Numbered from the stretch's first letter, positions 1 through 11,852 are shown. The stretch: DNA of 11,884 nucleotides from a virus (IMGVR_UViG_2703719368_000012:1-11884); one strand, 5' to 3'. The notes: a model not told the origin generated them from the sequence alone. A program made the numbers and translations.

Positions 1-2343
1 GCATCGTGCAGGGCGTTATGGCGTTCACCTTCGAATGGAATAGTCGTTCTTGCGTCGAAATCCATCACCAGTCCCAGAGCAACCATCGTTCTTACATCGC
101 GATCATTGGTGTAACGCCACGGGCAGGGGATCCCCTGCCGTTCATATGAACGGCGTAAAATCACGTTGTCGAAAGTTGCACCGTTACCCCAGACCTGAAC
201 AAAAAATTCACCGGAGTTTTCGTCGATAAATTCCCGGAATTGCAGCAGTGCATCATCCAACGTGATTTCATCGGTCAGAATGGAGGATTGTGCTTCGCGT
301 GACTGTTTCAGCCACCACTTAATGGTGTCCCGATCGATGACCCCACCTGCGGTTTCCAGATCGATAGTTTTGCTGAATTCTGGCCCCATCTCTCCGGTTG
401 CCGGATCAAAAAACTTACCGGCTATAGAGTTTATTGGCGCATCAGGATTTTTTCCCATTGTTTCAAGGTCAATCATCAGATGGTGCCACAACCTGCTGGT
501 GGATGAGATTTCATGATGACCGTTCACTTTAATTAAGGGATTTGCTGTTTCGCCAGTTTTATTATCGCTGGCGTGATACTGATCGCTGCCAGTGTTCTCC
601 TTGTGCAGATGTTCAGTGCCTTCCATTTCCTCCGGATCATTTTTCTGAGCTTCAGCCTGATTCTCTTCATCGAATGTTTCCAGGTAGGTTGCGTTCCCCA
701 TCACCGCACCACAGTCAGGACAGTTGCCGCCACCGGTCTGACCGCATGCGGTGCAAACTTTTTCCAGTTCCTGTTGCACTGCTGGTTCTGGTTGTTGTTC
801 TTCTGGCCCGTTTTGTTGCGTATCCGGGCTGTTTTGTTCCGCTTCTGGCTCATTTTGTTTCACGTTGGGCTGATTCTGGTCCTCAGCGTCGCGACTCTGG
901 ATCCCTTTCACCCATTTCGGATCATTCGGGTCGCTAATCCCTTCAACAAATTCACCACGTGATGCAGCAAGCAATTTATCGGCGTCAGGCTGGCTGATAT
1001 TGGCTGCCTGCATAATTTTGTTTACTTCGTCAGCGGTAACTTTTACCGGCTCTGATTGTTCGGAATCTTCAGCGGTATCCACATTTTGCGGTAAGCCCGT
1101 GTATGTGCCATTTTTTCGGGCAAAATATTCTTCTTTTGAGATTTCGGTACCGCCGGCAGCCAGCGCCTTGTCCAGACCAGAAAGTTTGTTTGCCCTGCCG
1201 TATTTTTCCCCGCCCTTATCGGTAAAGACGAAATAAAATGGTCCTTCACGCTCTACAGATGGTTCAGCTTCCACCAGGATTTCATTTTTTTGAGTATCGG
1301 ATTCTGCCGTCTCCACTGGAGCAGTTTGTGCTGCTGACGGCTGGAGAGCATCAGTAGAGCTCTGGTCTGTTTCTTCATGTTCAAACACGCCCTTTGTCGT
1401 CAGGTATTCACTGATATATTTGTTCAGTGCAACGGGATCTTTGTGAATATCGATCGGACGTTCGCGAACAAGGCCAAAAATAGTCTGACGGTCATAGCCA
1501 AGTGCTTCGGGCTGTTTGCGCATTGATGCTGAGATACGCTTCCAGTCTTCGCGATCCTTGTCGATAACCTCATTTGTCGCCCAGCGATGGATGGTACCGT
1601 CAATGTTTCCTGCATCCACATCACCGGGCCAGAGGGCGCAGGCCAGTTCATTGTCGAGTGTTTTCCATGTCTGTTTGTATTCGCGGCGAATGGCAAAAGA
1701 GATCAACAACAGACGTGTATTTTCCGGTTTCCTTGCGTTCACCTTCGCGACGTTTTTTCCAGATGCGCATCTCTGCCTGAATTTCAGGCCATTTAGCGCC
1801 AGGCTCACATTTATGCTTAACCCACCCGATGGCATGCAGTTTAAGTTCAGGATACATGGCGTTAACTTCTGGCATTTTCATCAACGCTTCAACGATATGT
1901 CCGCCGAATGTTGCCATGTCTTCCTGTAGTAATTCCTGTGCGCTAATCACCATATCAACGGTGATGTTTTCGCATGTGTCGAATTTAACCAGGACTGCGT
2001 TCTGTACTTCAGGGGACAGCTTGTCAAAATTGACGTTCATCGGATCGGATTCTGGTTCGACCGGTACAAAGGAAGCTGACTCCTCATCCCAGCGGTTTTC
2101 CTGCATATATTCGGTATCCCAGGAATCGAGGGCAGGGCGGGGTATGCCGGGTTTATCCTCGCAGACAATAAATTTATAAGCGCAGTCCTGAGCTGCCGGG
2201 AATTGCTCCAGAAATTGCCAGTGAAATTTTGCGCGTGCGCGACGCTCATCACCGGCTTCAATGGCAGTGGCCACCGCAACAGCGCTATCTTCTTTTATGG
2301 CCTGTTCGTCAGGAATAGCAGCGCAAATAAAGATTTTACTCAT
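1..2343 (-). CDS. Phage exonuclease (exodeoxyribonuclease VIII-like annotation class) with C-terminal DEDDh 3'-5' exonuclease domain; reading frame broken near 1695-1698; 3' end beyond window edge
   Basis: Minus-strand ATG at 2343 with GAGG about 10 nt upstream opens a 231-codon ORF (MSKIFICAAIPDEQ...) that stops at 1648. A second minus-strand frame, open from about 1740 to position 1 with no stop, continues plausibly (FAIRREYKQTWKTLDNELACALWPGDVDAGN...). It contains a Cys4 motif (CTACGQTGGGNCPDCGAV) and, near coordinates 1-500, DEDDh-like exonuclease motifs (MIDLETMG, WGNGATFD, HNALHDA). The two frames overlap around an A4/T4 run at 1695-1698. Confidence 0.8.
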
Positions 2344-2813: not shown

Positions 2814-3386
2814 TATCGCGTCCTCAACAATGAATTTTGTGATGCGGTGCCTGGTGCCTCCAGGTGACGTTAACCAGTTAACAATTAACGCCGGATACAG
2901 AGCATTCTCGTTACTCAGCAAATGACCGCTTTACCGATTTAACTGTTCCGCGTGCGCTGAGCCGCATTCACCGCATCACAAAATTCACTTTTAAAAAAGG
3001 GCGGCAGAGCAGTTACGGAGTAAAACTGATACCGCCAAATGTCACCAGAATATTGATAACAGAGGGCGTTGCAGCGGGGTTGTCACTTAAGCGTATGGTC
3101 AACCTGACAACCCGGTGTCCTCAACGGGGAAAGAATAACCCCGCCATACTTACCGCCGCGCCATTTCGCGGATTGCCACAACCGGAAGCGCACGGTCGAA
3201 TTAAATTTAACGACGGCTCTAAGGGAGAAGGACTTCGCCGTGCACTTTCGTGTTATGCCCTGACTTTTCAGGGATATATCCTTTCAGTAAACTGTCAGTG
3301 CCGGATTCTTATCTGTGTCCGGCGCACGACCACACGTAGCAGCGTGTTGGTCTCCATTTTTAATTCAGCCCTTAATGGAGGATAAA

Positions 3387-3572
3387 ATGCCAAACAAACC
3401 ATGCCCTGCCTGTAACGCTCTTTCTGGCTTTTTAGAGAAGGGCGGTTATTACATTTTTAACTGTCCAGAACATGTTGAATTTCATATATCAAAACTTGAC
3501 AGTATCATTACAAAGCCAAATCAGTATCAGTCTGATTTACTGAATAAAGAGTTAAACGCCGCCCGAGATTAA
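3387..3572 (+). CDS. Small zinc-ribbon-like protein (61 aa), function unknown
   Basis: ATG at 3387 with GGAGGA 4 nt upstream (3377-3382). Product MPNKPCPACNALSGFLEKGGYYIFNCPEHVEF... has CPAC ... CPEH spacing typical of a small Zn ribbon. It is plus-strand, convergent with the next gene, inside an AT-richer segment. Confidence 0.45.
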   Translation: MPNKPCPACNALSGFLEKGGYYIFNCPEHVEFHISKLDSIITKPNQYQSDLLNKELNAARD

Positions 3573-3610
3573 GGGCGTAGTGGCCCATTAAAAATATTGC
3601 AAAGACCAAC

Positions 3611-4148
3611 TATTGTTGAACTGGATTAAACCAGTAATTCTCTATTGCTCTTATTGTTACCATCGGATGATTGCCGGGGGTTATTTTAAGTTCGGGAGGA
3701 AAAGGCTCTCCATCAGCAGCCATCATTGAGTATGTGAAATCCGCCGACGCAGTCCCTTTCATGATAATTCCGAATTTTTCAAGTAATGAGAGCAGTTCCG
3801 GTAATCCTGTGTCATCTGAATAACTTTCCTCATAGAAAGAAGCGATTGCCGCAGGAGATGACAGTTCTCGCTCTGCAATTTTTTTGTAGTTTTCCAGAAT
3901 TCTTTTTTTGAATACTTTTCCTCGACATGAAAACCCATCACCGAGGCAATCCGCTTTGCAGTTTCTTCAGTATTCTGGTTGTTTGTTACCGAAACAGAGT
4001 ACAATCCGGTAAACGCATCGCGCACATTACGAGCCATATTATCAATGTATTTCTTCGTTGCAGATTCTAATTCAACTTCGTTCAGACGTTGGTGAAGTGC
4101 ATGTGCTGCAATTTCCTGGATTTCTTTTAGTAAATCTTTAAATTCCAT
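3611..4148 (-). CDS. Hypothetical prophage accessory protein (about 179 aa if read through); frame interrupted at a homopolymeric A7 tract
   Basis: ATG at 4148 (MEFKDLLKEIQEIAAHALHQRLNEVELESATKKYIDNMARNVRDAF...). After KYSKK at the A7 tract (plus-strand T7 at 3903-3909; a second T7 at 3879-3885) the -1 frame continues protein-like (RILENYKKIAERELSSPAAIASFYEESYSDDTGLPELLSLLEKFGIIMKG...NYWFNPVQQ) to a stop at 3611-3613. The zero frame instead reads EFWKTTKKLQSENCHLLRQ... and stops at 3759. Total length 538 nt is not a multiple of 3. Confidence 0.5.
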
Positions 4149-4159
4149 CTTTAACTCCG

Positions 4160-4288
4160 TTAGTCGTTAGATTTTGCCGAACTGGAAAGCGCCTGTTTAA
4201 ACTCACTGAAGCTGAGAGCTTCCTCGCCTTCGGCAAGGCCTTCGAAGTATTCTTCGTAAGCCTTTTCCATGATTGTGTCGAAATCCAT
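4160..4288 (-). CDS. ydaG: YdaG-like small prophage protein (42 aa)
   Basis: ATG at 4286-4288 with AGGTGA about 7 nt upstream; product MDFDTIMEKAYEEYFEGLAEGEEALSFSEFKQALSSSAKSND matches my recollection of Rac-prophage YdaG; sits immediately downstream of the ydaF-like gene. Confidence 0.6.
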   Translation of the reverse strand: MDFDTIMEKAYEEYFEGLAEGEEALSFSEFKQALSSSAKSND

Positions 4289-4289
4289 A

Positions 4290-4445
4290 TCACTCACCTG
4301 AGTTTCTTTCCAGCCAGCGACGGGCACCATTTTCGGTTTTAAACGTTTTGCTTTTGGTATACGTCATCGCGGTGAATGTACCGTCCTGGTTGGGAAACAC
4401 GCCGTACACCAGAGATTCGTTGTTGCCAAGATCGATAGTATCCAT
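4290..4445 (-). CDS. ydaF: YdaF-like small prophage protein (51 aa)
   Basis: ATG at 4443-4445 with GAGG about 6 nt upstream; product MDTIDLGNNESLVYGVFPNQDGTFTAMTYTKSKTFKTENGARRWLERNSGE matches my recollection of Rac YdaF (DUF1391). The track ORF extends 13 codons further upstream without an RBS. Confidence 0.65.
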   Translation of the reverse strand: MDTIDLGNNESLVYGVFPNQDGTFTAMTYTKSKTFKTENGARRWLERNSGE

Positions 4446-4722: not shown

Positions 4723-5010
4723 TCAGATAGAGAAGGGAAATTGTCGCCGAGAATGTGTCACGCTTACAATCTCAATGCTTGAAGCAGCTACTCTGTACAG
4801 GATTATGTAGTTAGGGTGGGTCACGATCTCTCTCAATCCAGAAACCCGTTCGCTTGGTGGATATAAGTACGGATGCTCAGATAGAGGTAATACCGATGTT
4901 TCAATGCGTATTTTTAGTCTACGTGCTGCCGGTGGGTTCTCCTTGGCGATGTAAGTTATGATCTGGCGCAAATCATCGCGAGCAGACGGTAGCCATAAAA
5001 TGGGTAACAT
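4723..5010 (-). CDS. Type II toxin, ParE/RelE family (95 aa)
   Basis: Product MLPILWLPSARDDLRQIITYIAKENPPAARRLKIRIETSVLPLSEHPYLYPPSERVSGLREIVTHPNYIILYRVAASSIEIVSVTHSRRQ carries the ParE/RelE signature pattern (W..A..DL..I..YI, GLRE, YII.YR, V.H..R). Its start overlaps the upstream small gene stop by 1 nt (TAATG). Confidence 0.7.
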   Translation of the reverse strand: MLPILWLPSARDDLRQIITYIAKENPPAARRLKIRIETSVLPLSEHPYLYPPSERVSGLREIVTHPNYIILYRVAASSIEIVSVTHSRRQFPFSI

Positions 5011-5201
5011 TACTCGCTCTTGTTAGTTACAGCAATTTGAGCAATAAGATTTTCCATTTCAGCCATTACCTCGTCATGTGGAATTGCGGGGCGAGTGTCT
5101 GCAAGGCTTGACGTTACTTTAGTGCGCAACCATTCGTTGTAACTGTTTTCTTGTTCGGTAGTTTCGAATTCTGAAACTATCGGAGAAAGGGCTGTACCCA
5201 T
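5010..5201 (-). CDS. Putative cognate antitoxin of the ParE/RelE-family toxin (63 aa)
   Basis: ATG at 5199-5201 with GAGGAG 5 nt upstream; small acidic product (MGTALSPIVSEFETTEQENSYNEWLRTKVTSSLADTRPAIPHDEVMAEMENLIAQIAVTNKSE); immediately upstream of and overlapping the toxin gene in the canonical antitoxin-first order. Confidence 0.6.
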   Translation of the reverse strand: MGTALSPIVSEFETTEQENSYNEWLRTKVTSSLADTRPAIPHDEVMAEMENLIAQIAVTNKSE

Positions 5202-5228
5202 GGCATAACTCCTCTTCTTGTACTGTGG

Positions 5229-5630
5229 TCACGCCCGGCGGCTTTTTTGTGCCGCCAGCCACCTAGCAATGGTTTCTTCCATTGATTTTTTCTTGTCTTT
5301 GATTTCTTGAAGCATTTTTTCTTGGTCTTCCTCAGGAAACGCACTAAAAGCTTGGAGCAGTTCGCGTTGGCGAGGACCAATTTTCATCGTGTCAGGGGTG
5401 AAAATTTGCTCACACTCTTCAGGAGGCAATAAAAACCAATGCAATGGATGCCCTGAAACCTCAACCAGTTTATCCAAACTTGAGGCTTTAGGTGTAGCCT
5501 TACCGCTGACCCATTGTTGAACAGTTTGTTGTGTCACACCAATTCTACGGGCAAGCTCAGCCTGGCTCCATCCAGTTTCCTGAAGAAGCTTGCTGATTCT
5601 GTACATAGATACTTCTAGGGCGCTCATCAT
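5229..5630 (-). CDS. Prophage repressor-like HTH (XRE/Cro-CI family) DNA-binding protein, about 133 aa, no peptidase domain
   Basis: HTH signature SQAELARRIGVTQQTVQQWVSGKATPK; transcribed divergently from the cro-like gene across the operator region at 5631-5738. ATG at 5630 has no Shine-Dalgarno (possibly leaderless); an alternative ATG at 5606 gives 125 aa. Confidence 0.7.
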   Translation of the reverse strand: MMSALEVSMYRISKLLQETGWSQAELARRIGVTQQTVQQWVSGKATPKASSLDKLVEVSGHPLHWFLLPPEECEQIFTPDTMKIGPRQRELLQAFSAFPEEDQEKMLQEIKDKKKSMEETIARWLAAQKSRRA

Positions 5631-9026: not shown

Positions 9027-9614
9027 ATGGAAACCGTATCTGACGCACTGAAAGCACTGAAAAAAGCCTCTTCACATGTGGTGGCAGCTCGCCTTGGAAT
9101 CAGTCGTGAAGAGGCTGTCAACGAGCTGTGGGAACTCAAAATAAATGGCGTCGTTGATAAAACTGGTCACACCTGGTTTCTGGCTGGCGAAGGTGAATCC
9201 CGGGTAACCGAAGAGCGGCCAGTAAAATCTGAAGCACAGGATATGCTGACCGGGGAGGTCGAACAAAAAGTTACCGCAGACATGATGATTGAGTTTATCG
9301 GTCAGGATGGGGCTAAAACGTGTGAGGAACTGGCGGGTAAGTTCGGTGTCAGTACTCGCAAGGTTGCTTCCACGCTGGCGGTGGTAACCGCAACGGGGCG
9401 GCTGGCACGCGTTAATCAGAACGGTAAATTTCGTTACTGCATGCCGGGCGATAATTTACCAGCAGAGCCGAAAGCCGCGCTGGTAACGGAAAGTGATGGT
9501 AAGGCCTTTCCTCAGAACGTGTTGTATCGGAAAAGTGATTGCCGGAGGCGCTTATGGCAAAAGTATTTACACAGGAAGAGCGGGAAAAAATTAAAGGGCA
9601 GGTTGTTGAGCTAG
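9027..9614 (+). CDS. Hypothetical prophage protein with winged-helix-like repeats (possibly DUF1627-like), 195 aa
   Basis: ATG at 9027 with GGAGG 8 nt upstream; two similar HTH-like segments (ARLGISREEAVNELWELKINGVVDKTG and ELAGKFGVSTRKVASTLAVVTATGRLARV). The last 25 or so codons overlap the next gene and look low-quality. Confidence 0.6.
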   Translation: METVSDALKALKKASSHVVAARLGISREEAVNELWELKINGVVDKTGHTWFLAGEGESRVTEERPVKSEAQDMLTGEVEQKVTADMMIEFIGQDGAKTCEELAGKFGVSTRKVASTLAVVTATGRLARVNQNGKFRYCMPGDNLPAEPKAALVTESDGKAFPQNVLYRKSDCRRRLWQKYLHRKSGKKLKGRLLS

Positions 9615-9967
9615 TACGCCGGAGTGGGCGCGAGACGTTACGGCAACTGGAAGCCAAGACAGGTGCGACAAGATATCTGATGAGCGTTCTTGCCAGAGAG
9701 CTGGTTGCCAGTGGCGATGTATACAACTCTGGTTACGGGTTATTCCCATCTGAACAGGCTCGTAAGGACTGGCAAAACGCCCGCAAAAAACTATCGAGGG
9801 CAAAACTGAAGAAACCGGTTGTGGTTGATCCTGACCTTATCTGGTCATTACCAGACGGAGAAATACGCCGCTATGACAGGCAATTGAACATAATTTGTAG
9901 TGAGTGCCGTAACAGTGAAGTGATGCAGCGAGTTTTGATATTTTACACAGGAGTAATGATGGAATAG
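9554..9967 (+). CDS. Hypothetical prophage protein (137 aa)
   Basis: ATG at 9554 with GGAGG 5 nt upstream; product MAKVFTQEEREKIKGQVVELVRRSGRETLRQLEAKTGATRYLMSVLARELVASGDVY... includes a winged-helix-like segment and a CSECRNSE motif near the C-terminus. Confidence 0.55.
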   Translation: MAKVFTQEEREKIKGQVVELVRRSGRETLRQLEAKTGATRYLMSVLARELVASGDVYNSGYGLFPSEQARKDWQNARKKLSRAKLKKPVVVDPDLIWSLPDGEIRRYDRQLNIICSECRNSEVMQRVLIFYTGVMME

Positions 9968-10318
9968 TGAAAATAACATGAAACCTTTGGATTCTGGTGT
10001 TTCAGTGGATGGGAAAAGAGCAGATACATAGAAAATGAATAGCAATAATTCACAGTCTGGATGTTGTTTGTATGCTTATAAAATGATCCTAGTATGCATT
10101 GCCGGAGTTGAATCAGCTCCAATGAAGAAACTGAGAGGAGTATTTAGAAGATAGCTAAATGGATGTAATTATTAGTATCTAAAAAATAGTATTTTTGAAA
10201 TGGGTCTAAGAACACAACAATGTACAAATGAGAAGTTATCTTTTAATATGTTCAAAGACCCATTAGGATTGATATCAGTTATGTTAGCTAGATTGATAAA
10301 GTGATTACATATTTTCTG

Positions 10319-11092
10319 TTATATGCTGAAATGAATAATGCTATTCCAGAGTGCAGCAGAGAAAGTCTCCTGATGATTGAGCTCTGGAAATTGTACAATA
10401 GAAAAATTACTGTATTTTTCTGTCAAAATATTTCTCAAAACAGATTCCGCTTTGATGGCTTCAGGATATAAAGATGCGGAGTAATCAAGGCTAAGATTTC
10501 CGTTAAGCAAGCATATACTTTTAGTGTGCTTTGATTCTGATATATCATCTTTAATTATCTTGATGATTCTTTCATTCTGCCATAGAAGTGATGGTGCAGA
10601 TATATAATAATAGTTAAAGCATGAATTATTTTTTAAGCAATCAAGCACAAAAATAGCACCTAGCGAGTGCCCCCATATACCGATTCTGGAACTGTTCGGA
10701 GCAATAGTACTAACCCATGGCATGATCTGAGTTAGTAATAATTCTCGGAAAGACTGGCTTCCTCCACCAGTAAAGTAGATCCATGCTGGTTTAGAGTTAT
10801 CAACAATAGCATTTTCACCATCAGGAGTATAATCGTAAGCACGGCGATGAATGCTAAGGTTATTCCAAGATTCATAACCAAGTGTAACTAACACTGGTGG
10901 ATTGGGTAGTGCATCAATAACAGGCAGAATATCAGAAATGTAATTGTTGGCACTATTCCCATCAAGTATATAAAGAGTTGCATTATTTTTTTTAATGTTT
11001 TTTGGAGTAAAAATACATATTTTATATTTGGTGTCATGGTTAATTGAGTTAAATATGCGTGTTTGACAATGAATGTCCATATGTTTAGTCAT
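10319..11092 (-). CDS. Alpha/beta-hydrolase esterase (PF00756-like putative esterase / siderophore-esterase fold), 257 aa, no signal peptide; AT-rich cargo (moron) gene
   Basis: Catalytic nucleophile elbow GHSLG; N-terminal LYILDGNS motif and IFTP strand typical of the Fes/IroE/esterase D family; GGAG-type RBS upstream of ATG 11092; local base composition is strongly AT-rich relative to the flanking prophage genes. Confidence 0.8.
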   Translation of the reverse strand: MTKHMDIHCQTRIFNSINHDTKYKICIFTPKNIKKNNATLYILDGNSANNYISDILPVIDALPNPPVLVTLGYESWNNLSIHRRAYDYTPDGENAIVDNSKPAWIYFTGGGSQSFRELLLTQIMPWVSTIAPNSSRIGIWGHSLGAIFVLDCLKNNSCFNYYYISAPSLLWQNERIIKIIKDDISESKHTKSICLLNGNLSLDYSASLYPEAIKAESVLRNILTEKYSNFSIVQFPELNHQETFSAALWNSIIHFSI

Positions 11093-11492
11093 GCGTTCTC
11101 CCCATGAGCATTAAAGGATGCTTAAGATATGCTATGTCACTGATAAAAAATTTGTTGTGTGTGTTTAGTTATTTTATCTACCTCCATTATGATTTAAGAC
11201 TGATATATGTTATCAGCAAAGGTACATCGTTATTATTTTACCTGTCAATACATTTGATATTGATTATCGTTTACATCGCTTGCTTAGGAAATTGAAGGCA
11301 GGTAACTATCATGTCAATGAACTAACCCACAGTCTAACGTACTTCTTTCCCCAATCACCAACAACCAAATTCCTGTTATCACCACTGGGATTTTGGCGCA
11401 ACTTCATGGTGCAGAGGTAAATAGCATCAAGCAAAATCTCTTTTTCCGTTGTTGTCCTTATGGGACGTCTGTCTTTCTGACCGATTTCATAT

Positions 11493-11521: not shown

Positions 11522-11589
11522 AGCTGCGGGTGCTTGAGGCTATCTGCCTCGGGCATGAACACCAACGGCAGATAGAGAAAAGCCCCAGT

Positions 11590-11657
11590 TAACATTACGC
11601 GTCCTGCAAGACGCCTAACATTAATCTGAGGCTCAATCTATGAACGGCAAATCTAGG
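11590..11657 (-). ncRNA. sok: Putative Sok-like antisense RNA (type I antitoxin), approximate boundaries
   Basis: Minus-strand candidate -10 TAAGAG (plus-strand 11664-11669) sits opposite the start region of the upstream ORF, as in R1 sok; a hairpin GCGTC/GACGC (11599-11614) lies at the expected 3' end. Ends are not determinable from sequence alone. Confidence 0.35.
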
Positions 11658-11696
11658 TTAGCCTCTTACGTGCCGAAAGGCAAGGAGAAGCAGGCT

Positions 11697-11852
11697 ATGA
11701 AGCAGCAAAAGGCGATGTTAATCGCCCTGATCGTCATCTGTTTAACCGTCATAGTGACGGCACTGGTAACGAGGAAAGACCTCTGCGAGGTACGAGTCCG
11801 AACCGGCCAGACGGAGGTCGCTGTCTTCACAGCTTACGAACCTGAGGAGTAA
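11697..11852 (+). CDS. hok: Hok/Gef-family type I toxin (51 aa); an in-frame upstream ATG at 11640 gives a mok-like leader reading frame
   Basis: Product MKQQKAMLIALIVICLTVIVTALVTRKDLCEVRVRTGQTEVAVFTAYEPEE is a canonical Hok-family sequence (single TM helix, conserved Cys, C-terminal YEPEE), closely matching my recollection of HokD/RelF. The track ORF 11640-11852 extends the frame upstream by 19 codons. Confidence 0.85.
   Translation: MKQQKAMLIALIVICLTVIVTALVTRKDLCEVRVRTGQTEVAVFTAYEPEE

Follow-up and report, generated by a model that had tools for sequence, protein, structure and literature searches.

The two convergent genes at positions 3387 to 4148 of the window, which is the whole stretch of 11,884 nucleotides analysed here, are very probably both cut by ordinary mutations, and their decay appears to be fixed in STEC rather than to reflect an assembly error, a switch or programmed recoding. 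According to this explanation, a two-gene cassette would occupy the ydfC slot of an early-left dicBF operon, with gene A co-directional with the operon and gene B convergent to it. Intact A, a protein of 177 to 186 amino acids (aa), would combine an N-terminal helical domain common to many phage proteins with a C-terminal domain specific to the cassette, and intact B would be an 80-aa zinc-ribbon-like protein, the 3' end of its gene overlapping that of A. Gene A would have lost one A from a run of eight, presumably by replication slippage, leaving A7 at 3879-3885, and its translation would exit the native frame after residue 90 and end at 3759, with the loss of the whole C-terminal domain. A nonsense mutation, TCA to TAA at 3570-3572, would have deprived B of its last 19 residues, and the resulting double-truncated haplotype seems to have become fixed and very widespread in STEC. 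For annotation, this would mean that genes of 179 and 80 aa, in truncated form, underlie the 'hypothetical proteins' of the ECs_1063 type and the ECs_1061 type, respectively, that thousands of STEC assemblies contain.

A module in the ydfC slot of an Sp4-type prophage

The window is a lambdoid prophage of the Sp4/CP-933M type. It is near-identical to Sp4, the prophage that adjoins yccA in E. coli O157:H7 Sakai, and its segment 3330-4200 was found with 100% identity in the many complete STEC genomes listed (O157:H7, O103, O121 and others). Compared with Sakai Sp4 (L015), the window shows net losses of 62 nt in the exonuclease gene ECs_1057 (window 1697-1698) and of 259 nt in the DUF1627 gene ECs_1075 (window 9516-9517); as neither loss is a multiple of three, two further genes are broken in the window copy. 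On the minus strand, a PaaR-type repressor, PaaA, ParE, a ydfA-like DUF1391 gene, ydfB, the gene pair, DicF, DicB and a DUF1482 gene follow one another in this order. The features of the operon and of the cassette within it are as follows.

5229-5630, minus strand: PaaR-type repressor
5010-5201, minus strand: PaaA
4723-5010, minus strand: ParE
4160-4445, minus strand: ydfB and the ydfA-like DUF1391 gene, operon-upstream of the gene pair (PGAP on identical sequence; Pfam DUF1391)
3329-4161: accessory cassette of 833 bp in the ydfC slot of the ydfA-ydfB-[ydfC]-dicF-dicB early-left operon
3759-4148, minus strand: gene A, present ORF of 129 aa (ECs_1063 type), 90 native and 39 out-of-frame residues
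3903-3909, minus strand: first A7 tract, in frame (Lys-Lys), invariant in five aligned copies
3879-3885, minus strand: second tract, A7 on the coding strand (A_AAA_AAA), assigned as the frameshift site by DNA alignment and one-base repair
3610-3878, minus strand: C-terminal domain of gene A, stranded in the -1 frame (89 codons, stop at 3610-3612)
3387-3572, plus strand: gene B, present ORF of 61 aa (ECs_1061 type), zinc-ribbon-like, phrog_10133
3570-3572, plus strand: early stop of gene B, TAA in place of the TCA (Ser62) of intact copies
3573-3629, plus strand: lost 19-codon tail of gene B, GRSGPLKILQRPTIVELD and stop (read-through translation)
2999-3050, minus strand: DicF sRNA, operon-downstream of the gene pair (Rfam RF00039, 76.9 bits)
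2625-2921: ORF with the DicB domain

The Qin-type dicBF operon has the layout ydfA-ydfB-ydfC-dicF-dicB-ydfD (PMC5069750). The window resembles it in carrying ydfA-like, ydfB, DicF and DicB in the same order on one strand, together with DUF1482, but it lacks ydfC between ydfB and dicF and has in its place a two-gene cassette, one gene of which is antisense. The borders of this cassette were given by a blastn comparison with phage vB_EcoS-689R5 (L008), in which the homology stops at window position 3328 and restarts at 4162. As vB_EcoS-689R5 carries ydfC where the window carries 3329-4161, this segment is an alternative module that replaces ydfC, in agreement with the proposal of the sequence-only reading that it is an accessory cassette. 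The segment is also AT-richer than its surroundings, as had been noticed, only modestly so: its GC content is 40.0%, compared with 46.9% and 46.4% in the flanks, and 14% of the segments of the same size within the 11,884-nt stretch have a GC content as low or lower. No direct or inverted repeats that would be a sign of a mobile insert were found to flank the cassette. Additionally, the region upstream of gene B contains no sigma-70 consensus promoter, and no convincing terminator is present between the convergent genes. In CP-933P, a PL-type promoter lies directly downstream of parE2 (PMC8630535), and by homology with this prophage the same type of promoter may drive the operon of the window.

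The cassette was absent from phage isolate records, which hold just relatives of the N-terminal domain (N-domain) of A, with 30-52% identity. Gene A had no match in a scan of GTDB species representatives, and no mention of ECs1061, ECs1062 or ECs1063 was found in the literature searched.

Next to the immunity region, PaaR, PaaA and ParE constitute a three-component toxin-antitoxin system (4723-5630, minus strand). The same arrangement is known from CP-933P and CP-933M (PMC8630535).

The lesions in genes A and B

Both present ORFs, of 129 and 61 aa, are annotated by PGAP in O157:H7 genomes. The minus-strand ORF indeed has a broken frame, as the sequence-only reading had recognized: the 129-aa ORF at 3759-4148 is followed by an open -1 frame of 89 codons, and both T7 runs of the plus strand, at 3879-3885 and 3903-3909, are present. 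With the reconstructed protein as a query, we retrieved full-length homologs of 179, 179 and 180 aa (91%, 82% and 77% identity, respectively) and further ones of 177-186 aa from E. coli and Salmonella (61-68% identity), nine full-length clusters in all. Clearly, the homologs are not uniformly about 129 aa long, an outcome that had been considered in case the downstream frame was not coding. In support of its coding function, the C-terminal 87-89 codons of the E. coli-type and Salmonella-type intact genes differ with a dN/dS of 0.15-0.21 at a dS of about 1.4-1.9; this low ratio indicates that the downstream frame is truly coding, and the impression that both frames are protein-like was correct. 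The C-terminal domain (C-domain) of the window is 97.8% identical to that of the intact protein P0001.

The position of the break differs from that proposed initially, which was the tract at 3903-3909. Intact homologs read ...YSKKEFWKTTKK-IAERE... (...KKEFWKTTKK-IAERE...) across the site. The ...YSKKEFWK... at the first tract is kept in all intact proteins, and the native sequence of the 129-aa product ends, in the protein alignment, at ...WKTTKK. The reading of the intact homologs thus places the first tract in frame, within ...YSKKEFWKTTKK..., and the switch of frame at the second tract. The comparison of tract lengths in intact copies gave the same result. All five aligned copies, the intact ones included, have A7 at the first tract. 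At the second, 3879-3885, the window has A7 but the intact E. coli-type genes have A8, and the Salmonella and ETEC types show AAAAGAAT or AAACGCAT in its place, without a run. Moreover, the addition of one base at 3879-3885 yields exactly the database protein P0126 (179 aa), and the same repair at 3903-3909 does not. The joined protein of about 179 aa that had been predicted was therefore right in length but wrong in the eight residues between the two tracts.

The stop codon of the 129-aa ORF, TGA, shares bases with an ATG of the C-domain frame (ATGA, 3759-3762), at which a 50-aa ORF (3610-3762, residues 130-179 of intact A) could be reinitiated. This ORF is sometimes called by gene callers (P0178), and in the current annotation of Sakai there is no ECs_1062.

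Gene B was found as it had been described, a plus-strand, zinc-ribbon-like ORF of 61 aa at 3387-3572. It has a CxxC...CPxH pattern and is preceded by a ribosome-binding site, GGAGG, at 3377-3381, 5 nt upstream. Judged from its alignment with intact copies, this 61-aa gene is a nonsense-truncated form of an 80-aa gene. Intact B has 80 aa, or 84 if an ATG further upstream is taken as its start, and ends with ...DSGRSGPLKILQRPTIVELD; its gene shares 20-44 nt with the 3' end of A. In the window, 20 nt of the lost tail (3610-3629) coincide with the 3' end of A. The tail is kept in the Salmonella and ETEC types, the B proteins of which are 65-68% identical overall. An 80-aa B stands beside an intact A in loci L002, L005-7, L009, L011, L013, L014 and L016-20, and a B of 61 or 65 aa with the TAA stop was present in every A7 copy examined (the window, L001, L015 and L021-25). 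With the intact cassette as a query, no mixed haplotype, with one truncation only, ranked above the window allele.

The intact E. coli-type cassette was verified in one complete E. coli genome, that of strain A19 from a vampire bat. Copies of the ETEC type, with an A of 186 aa and a B of 80 aa, number about 24 in complete E. coli genomes, one of which was verified. PGAP calls the intact 80-aa gene of A19 (NZ_CP028756.1; L014 3084-3266) 'incomplete, missing C-terminus', as if the truncated 61-aa form acted as the annotation reference, which it seems to do.

The A7 tract: error, switch or recoding

Three explanations other than a fixed truncation bear on the A7 tract. Were it a sequencing or assembly error, the real gene would be intact. 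Homopolymer runs are error-prone on several platforms, and one such case occurred among the fetched loci: the sole copy with A6, L004 (GCA_008122345.1, VIFR01000002.1), has eight changes relative to the window in 4.3 kb, of which seven are one-base homopolymer deletions, and several of its genes are split. This load of homopolymer deletions indicates that the A6 copy is an assembly artefact, and that the 105-aa representative of the 'A6' cluster, P0011, is an artefact too. To look at the allele on a larger scale, we queried 99-mers with A7, A8 or A6 against 5,426 complete E. coli genomes. The allele was present in 386 of them, and 384 of the 386 matched the A7 99-mer exactly, while the A8 and A6 99-mers had no 100% match among these 386 genomes. 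The same A7 sequence is found in the Sakai reference and in five IMG/VR contigs. As many laboratories obtained the identical A7 in a total of 384 independent complete genomes, Sakai included, the sequencing-error option that had been left open is excluded, and we give it practically no chance of being true.

The same counts bear on the idea that the tract is a phase-variable contingency switch, with gene A on at A8 and off at A7 or A6. Homopolymers are mutable, and public assemblies contain this allele with A6, with A7 and with A8. However, neither A6 nor A8 occurs in any of the 386 complete genomes carrying the allele, which leaves phase variation unsupported, and the A6 record comes from the error-laden assembly described above. 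The A8 version of the exact allele is represented by the repaired 179-aa forms P0126 (O111:H11 CVM9534) and P0130 (O157:H7 SE18018), which are recorded on one or two contigs each, from draft assemblies, as opposed to thousands for A7, and which may be revertants or errors; for the 129-aa proteins, the contig counts are at least 1000, at least 1000 and 287. Moreover, in the same haplotype the nonsense mutation of the partner gene B is not reversible. A switch is thus very improbable. Of the paired suggestion of a pseudogene or a phase-variable switch, the first half held, as a fixed frameshift located at the other tract, and the second did not.

A third possibility is programmed -1 frameshifting or transcriptional slippage at A7, which would purposely yield both the 129-aa and the 179-aa proteins. 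The slippery heptamer A_AAA_AAA is present in the correct phase on the coding strand (AC-A AAA AAA-TTG at 3879-3885), every copy has kept the 89-codon -1 ORF open, and the allele shows stability as well as a wide distribution. Unaided by stimulators, this heptamer is among those that shift in E. coli with a frequency above 0.10%, and IS elements make use of it (PMC4066793). However, the closest intact genes have an in-frame A8 and the more distant ones no run, so that the two-frame layout is a derived state, seen in one near-identical allele alone; the diverged homologs are single-frame and have not kept it. The downstream RNA does not fold better than shuffled sequences (z = 0.17 and 0.22 for 50 and 80 nt, respectively), and no Shine-Dalgarno-like GGAG or AGGA was seen in the 17 nt upstream, GAAUUCUGGAAAACUAC. 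That the -1 ORF is still open can be explained by recency, as all copies are at least 99% identical. The dnaX and IS-element -1 sites of E. coli (A_AAA_AAG or A_AAA_AAA with stimulators) share with gene A the type of heptamer, its phase and a long -1 ORF, but gene A lacks an SD-like or hairpin stimulator, and its layout is not conserved, the in-frame state being ancestral. For transcriptional slippage in bacteria, runs of about nine A or T have been documented (PMC5009743). The tract at 3879-3885 thus has the phase of a -1 slippery site, but programmed slippage, with no stimulator and no conservation, is improbable, and the in-phase A_AAA_AAA heptamer with a long -1 ORF does not appear to denote recoding in the case of gene A.

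Unprogrammed slippage on A_AAA_AAA could possibly produce full-length A at a trace level. The background of shifting without a motif is 0.055%, and the best heptamers devoid of stimulators shift at most about ten-fold more often (PMC4066793), which would correspond to a leak of the order of 0.1-0.5% in E. coli. In this respect, gene A can be likened to the herpesvirus thymidine kinase gene with its G-run 'savior indel' (PMC5009743), where a homopolymer indel in a gene likewise makes a trace full-length product conceivable. In contrast to that case of leaky compensatory frameshifting, nothing at gene A points to a trace product.

Fixed truncation by ordinary mutation also has precedents in the same group of prophages. 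Like the homopolymer frameshift pseudogenes of the cryptic lambdoid prophages of E. coli O157:H7 (Sp / CP-933), gene A has a one-base change in an A/T run, its host prophage is defective with other lesions, and the allele is fixed across the lineage. Unlike them, the product of gene A keeps a complete conserved domain, and the convergent partner is truncated too.

Cassette domains, the Rip1 lead and a possible role of selection

The two halves of A differ in what they travel with. Among 95 fetched loci with the N-domain, a zinc-ribbon gene was convergent directly behind the C-domain in all 24 that have this domain, compared with 1 of the 70 without it. At 23 of these 24 C-domain loci, the partner is of the 80-aa type and at one, L012, of a 168-aa type. 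As L012 has an intact A and no 80-aa partner, the pairing of A with B is not obligate. The N-domain alone is represented by PHROGs 9419, 6937 and 33007 and by many representatives of 50-130 aa. In a HMMER search with intact A against 1.84 billion representatives, nearly all of the 31 hits had only the N-domain, the exceptions being the query's own cluster and two fragments; this search revealed no distant relatives of the C-domain. As the frameshift spares the widespread N-domain and removes the half that is specific to the cassette, we make no claim that the 129-aa protein has lost its activity. It keeps the entire conserved N-domain, and may still work.

As for the function of the intact pair, sequence searches of Pfam, NCBIfam, PADLOC and PDB gave nothing significant for either gene, and their PHROGs matches were to families of unknown function only. 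The segment had been noted to sit at a sieB-like position, where lambdoid phages often carry exclusion genes, and hence to be a possible defence cassette, but neither A nor B matched the SieB family of Pfam at E values up to 1. The AlphaFold2 models were poor (pLDDT 54.6 for A and 53.9 for B), and Foldseek with this poor model of A retrieved nothing from PDB or BFVD at E < 0.001. A type II toxin-antitoxin pair was considered as well and rejected: no toxin or antitoxin family of Pfam, NCBIfam or PADLOC was matched, and the genes are convergent, not co-directional.

A lead came from L012, in which the slot of B, convergent behind intact A, holds the 168-aa protein, which matches Rip1 (PDB 9oox) over its residues 5-138 with E = 4e-12. 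Rip1 (ring interacting pore 1) is a prophage-encoded single-protein anti-phage defence, the N-terminal amphipathic helix of which forms a pore and the C-terminal half of which binds small-terminase or portal rings (PMC13434031). Homologs of Rip1 stand antisense in the early-left operon, in the B slot, in L012 (3598-4104) and L091 (about 3865-4317), and the family of the L012 homolog is broad in Enterobacterales, where its members are recorded as 'hypothetical proteins' of 155-175 aa. Intact B resembles Rip1 in being zinc-ribbon-like; the zinc ribbon of Rip1 is C-terminal and of the CxxC...CxxC form. However, B has just 80 aa, begins at the zinc ribbon and lacks the N-terminal pore-forming helical part of roughly 100 residues. 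An hhalign comparison of the B zinc ribbon with the Rip1 family gave a weak similarity (35 columns, probability 22%, P = 9.5e-4), phmmer of B against PDB did not retrieve 9oox, and tblastn with the Rip1 homolog found no N-terminal remnant upstream of B in 23 loci. As B has no pore half and no remnant of it upstream, and the similarity is weak, it is not a member of the Rip1 family. The ORF at 3053-3385, upstream of B, was also tried as the missing N-terminus of a split Rip1 and rejected, as it is unrelated. The shared slot nevertheless suggests that the antisense position is used for conflict genes, and, given this position and the Rip1 homolog in the slot, the intact pair may have a role in phage-host or phage-phage conflict. 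Since this slot can hold a Rip1 homolog, the intact cassette of ETEC, Salmonella and a few E. coli would be a reasonable candidate in the search for phage-conflict genes.

These observations raise the question of whether the double truncation was selected. If the C-domain and B formed a costly conflict module, STEC prophages could have gained by its loss while the N-domain protein was kept. In line with that, the two disabling changes are found among about six differences from the nearest intact allele, downstream of alignment column 130; the frameshift deletes exactly the domain that travels with B; and a defence gene of the Rip1 family occupies the B slot of L012 and L091. Moreover, the truncated haplotype, with 386 complete genomes, far outnumbers the intact ones, with one verified E. 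coli-type copy and about 24 of the ETEC type (one verified). However, the truncated copies represent one haplotype, effectively one event per mutation, and their abundance may reflect no more than STEC sampling and hitch-hiking alongside the prophage. The two truncations are perfectly linked, though possibly as a single haplotype (effectively n = 1); this linkage says little about selection and is no proof of co-selection. Additionally, the physical overlap of the C-domain with B makes their co-inheritance trivial, and neither A nor B has a match in PADLOC, Pfam or NCBIfam. On balance, we regard selection for the double truncation as unlikely. We are equally doubtful about its fuller version, in which the C-domain of A and B would be an undescribed conflict module, with B derived from a Rip1 ribbon, both disabled by selection, the N-domain kept and full-length A possibly made in traces.

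At the far end of the window, positions 9900-11300 constitute a low-GC block (29-36% GC). A 257-aa ORF within it (10319-11092, minus strand), which contains a T8 run at 10986-10993, had no match in Pfam or PADLOC and matches phrog_8493, a family of unknown function. Downstream of this block, a sok antitoxin RNA was identified at 11528-11702 on the plus strand (105.6 bits), with a hok-type ORF at 11640-11852.
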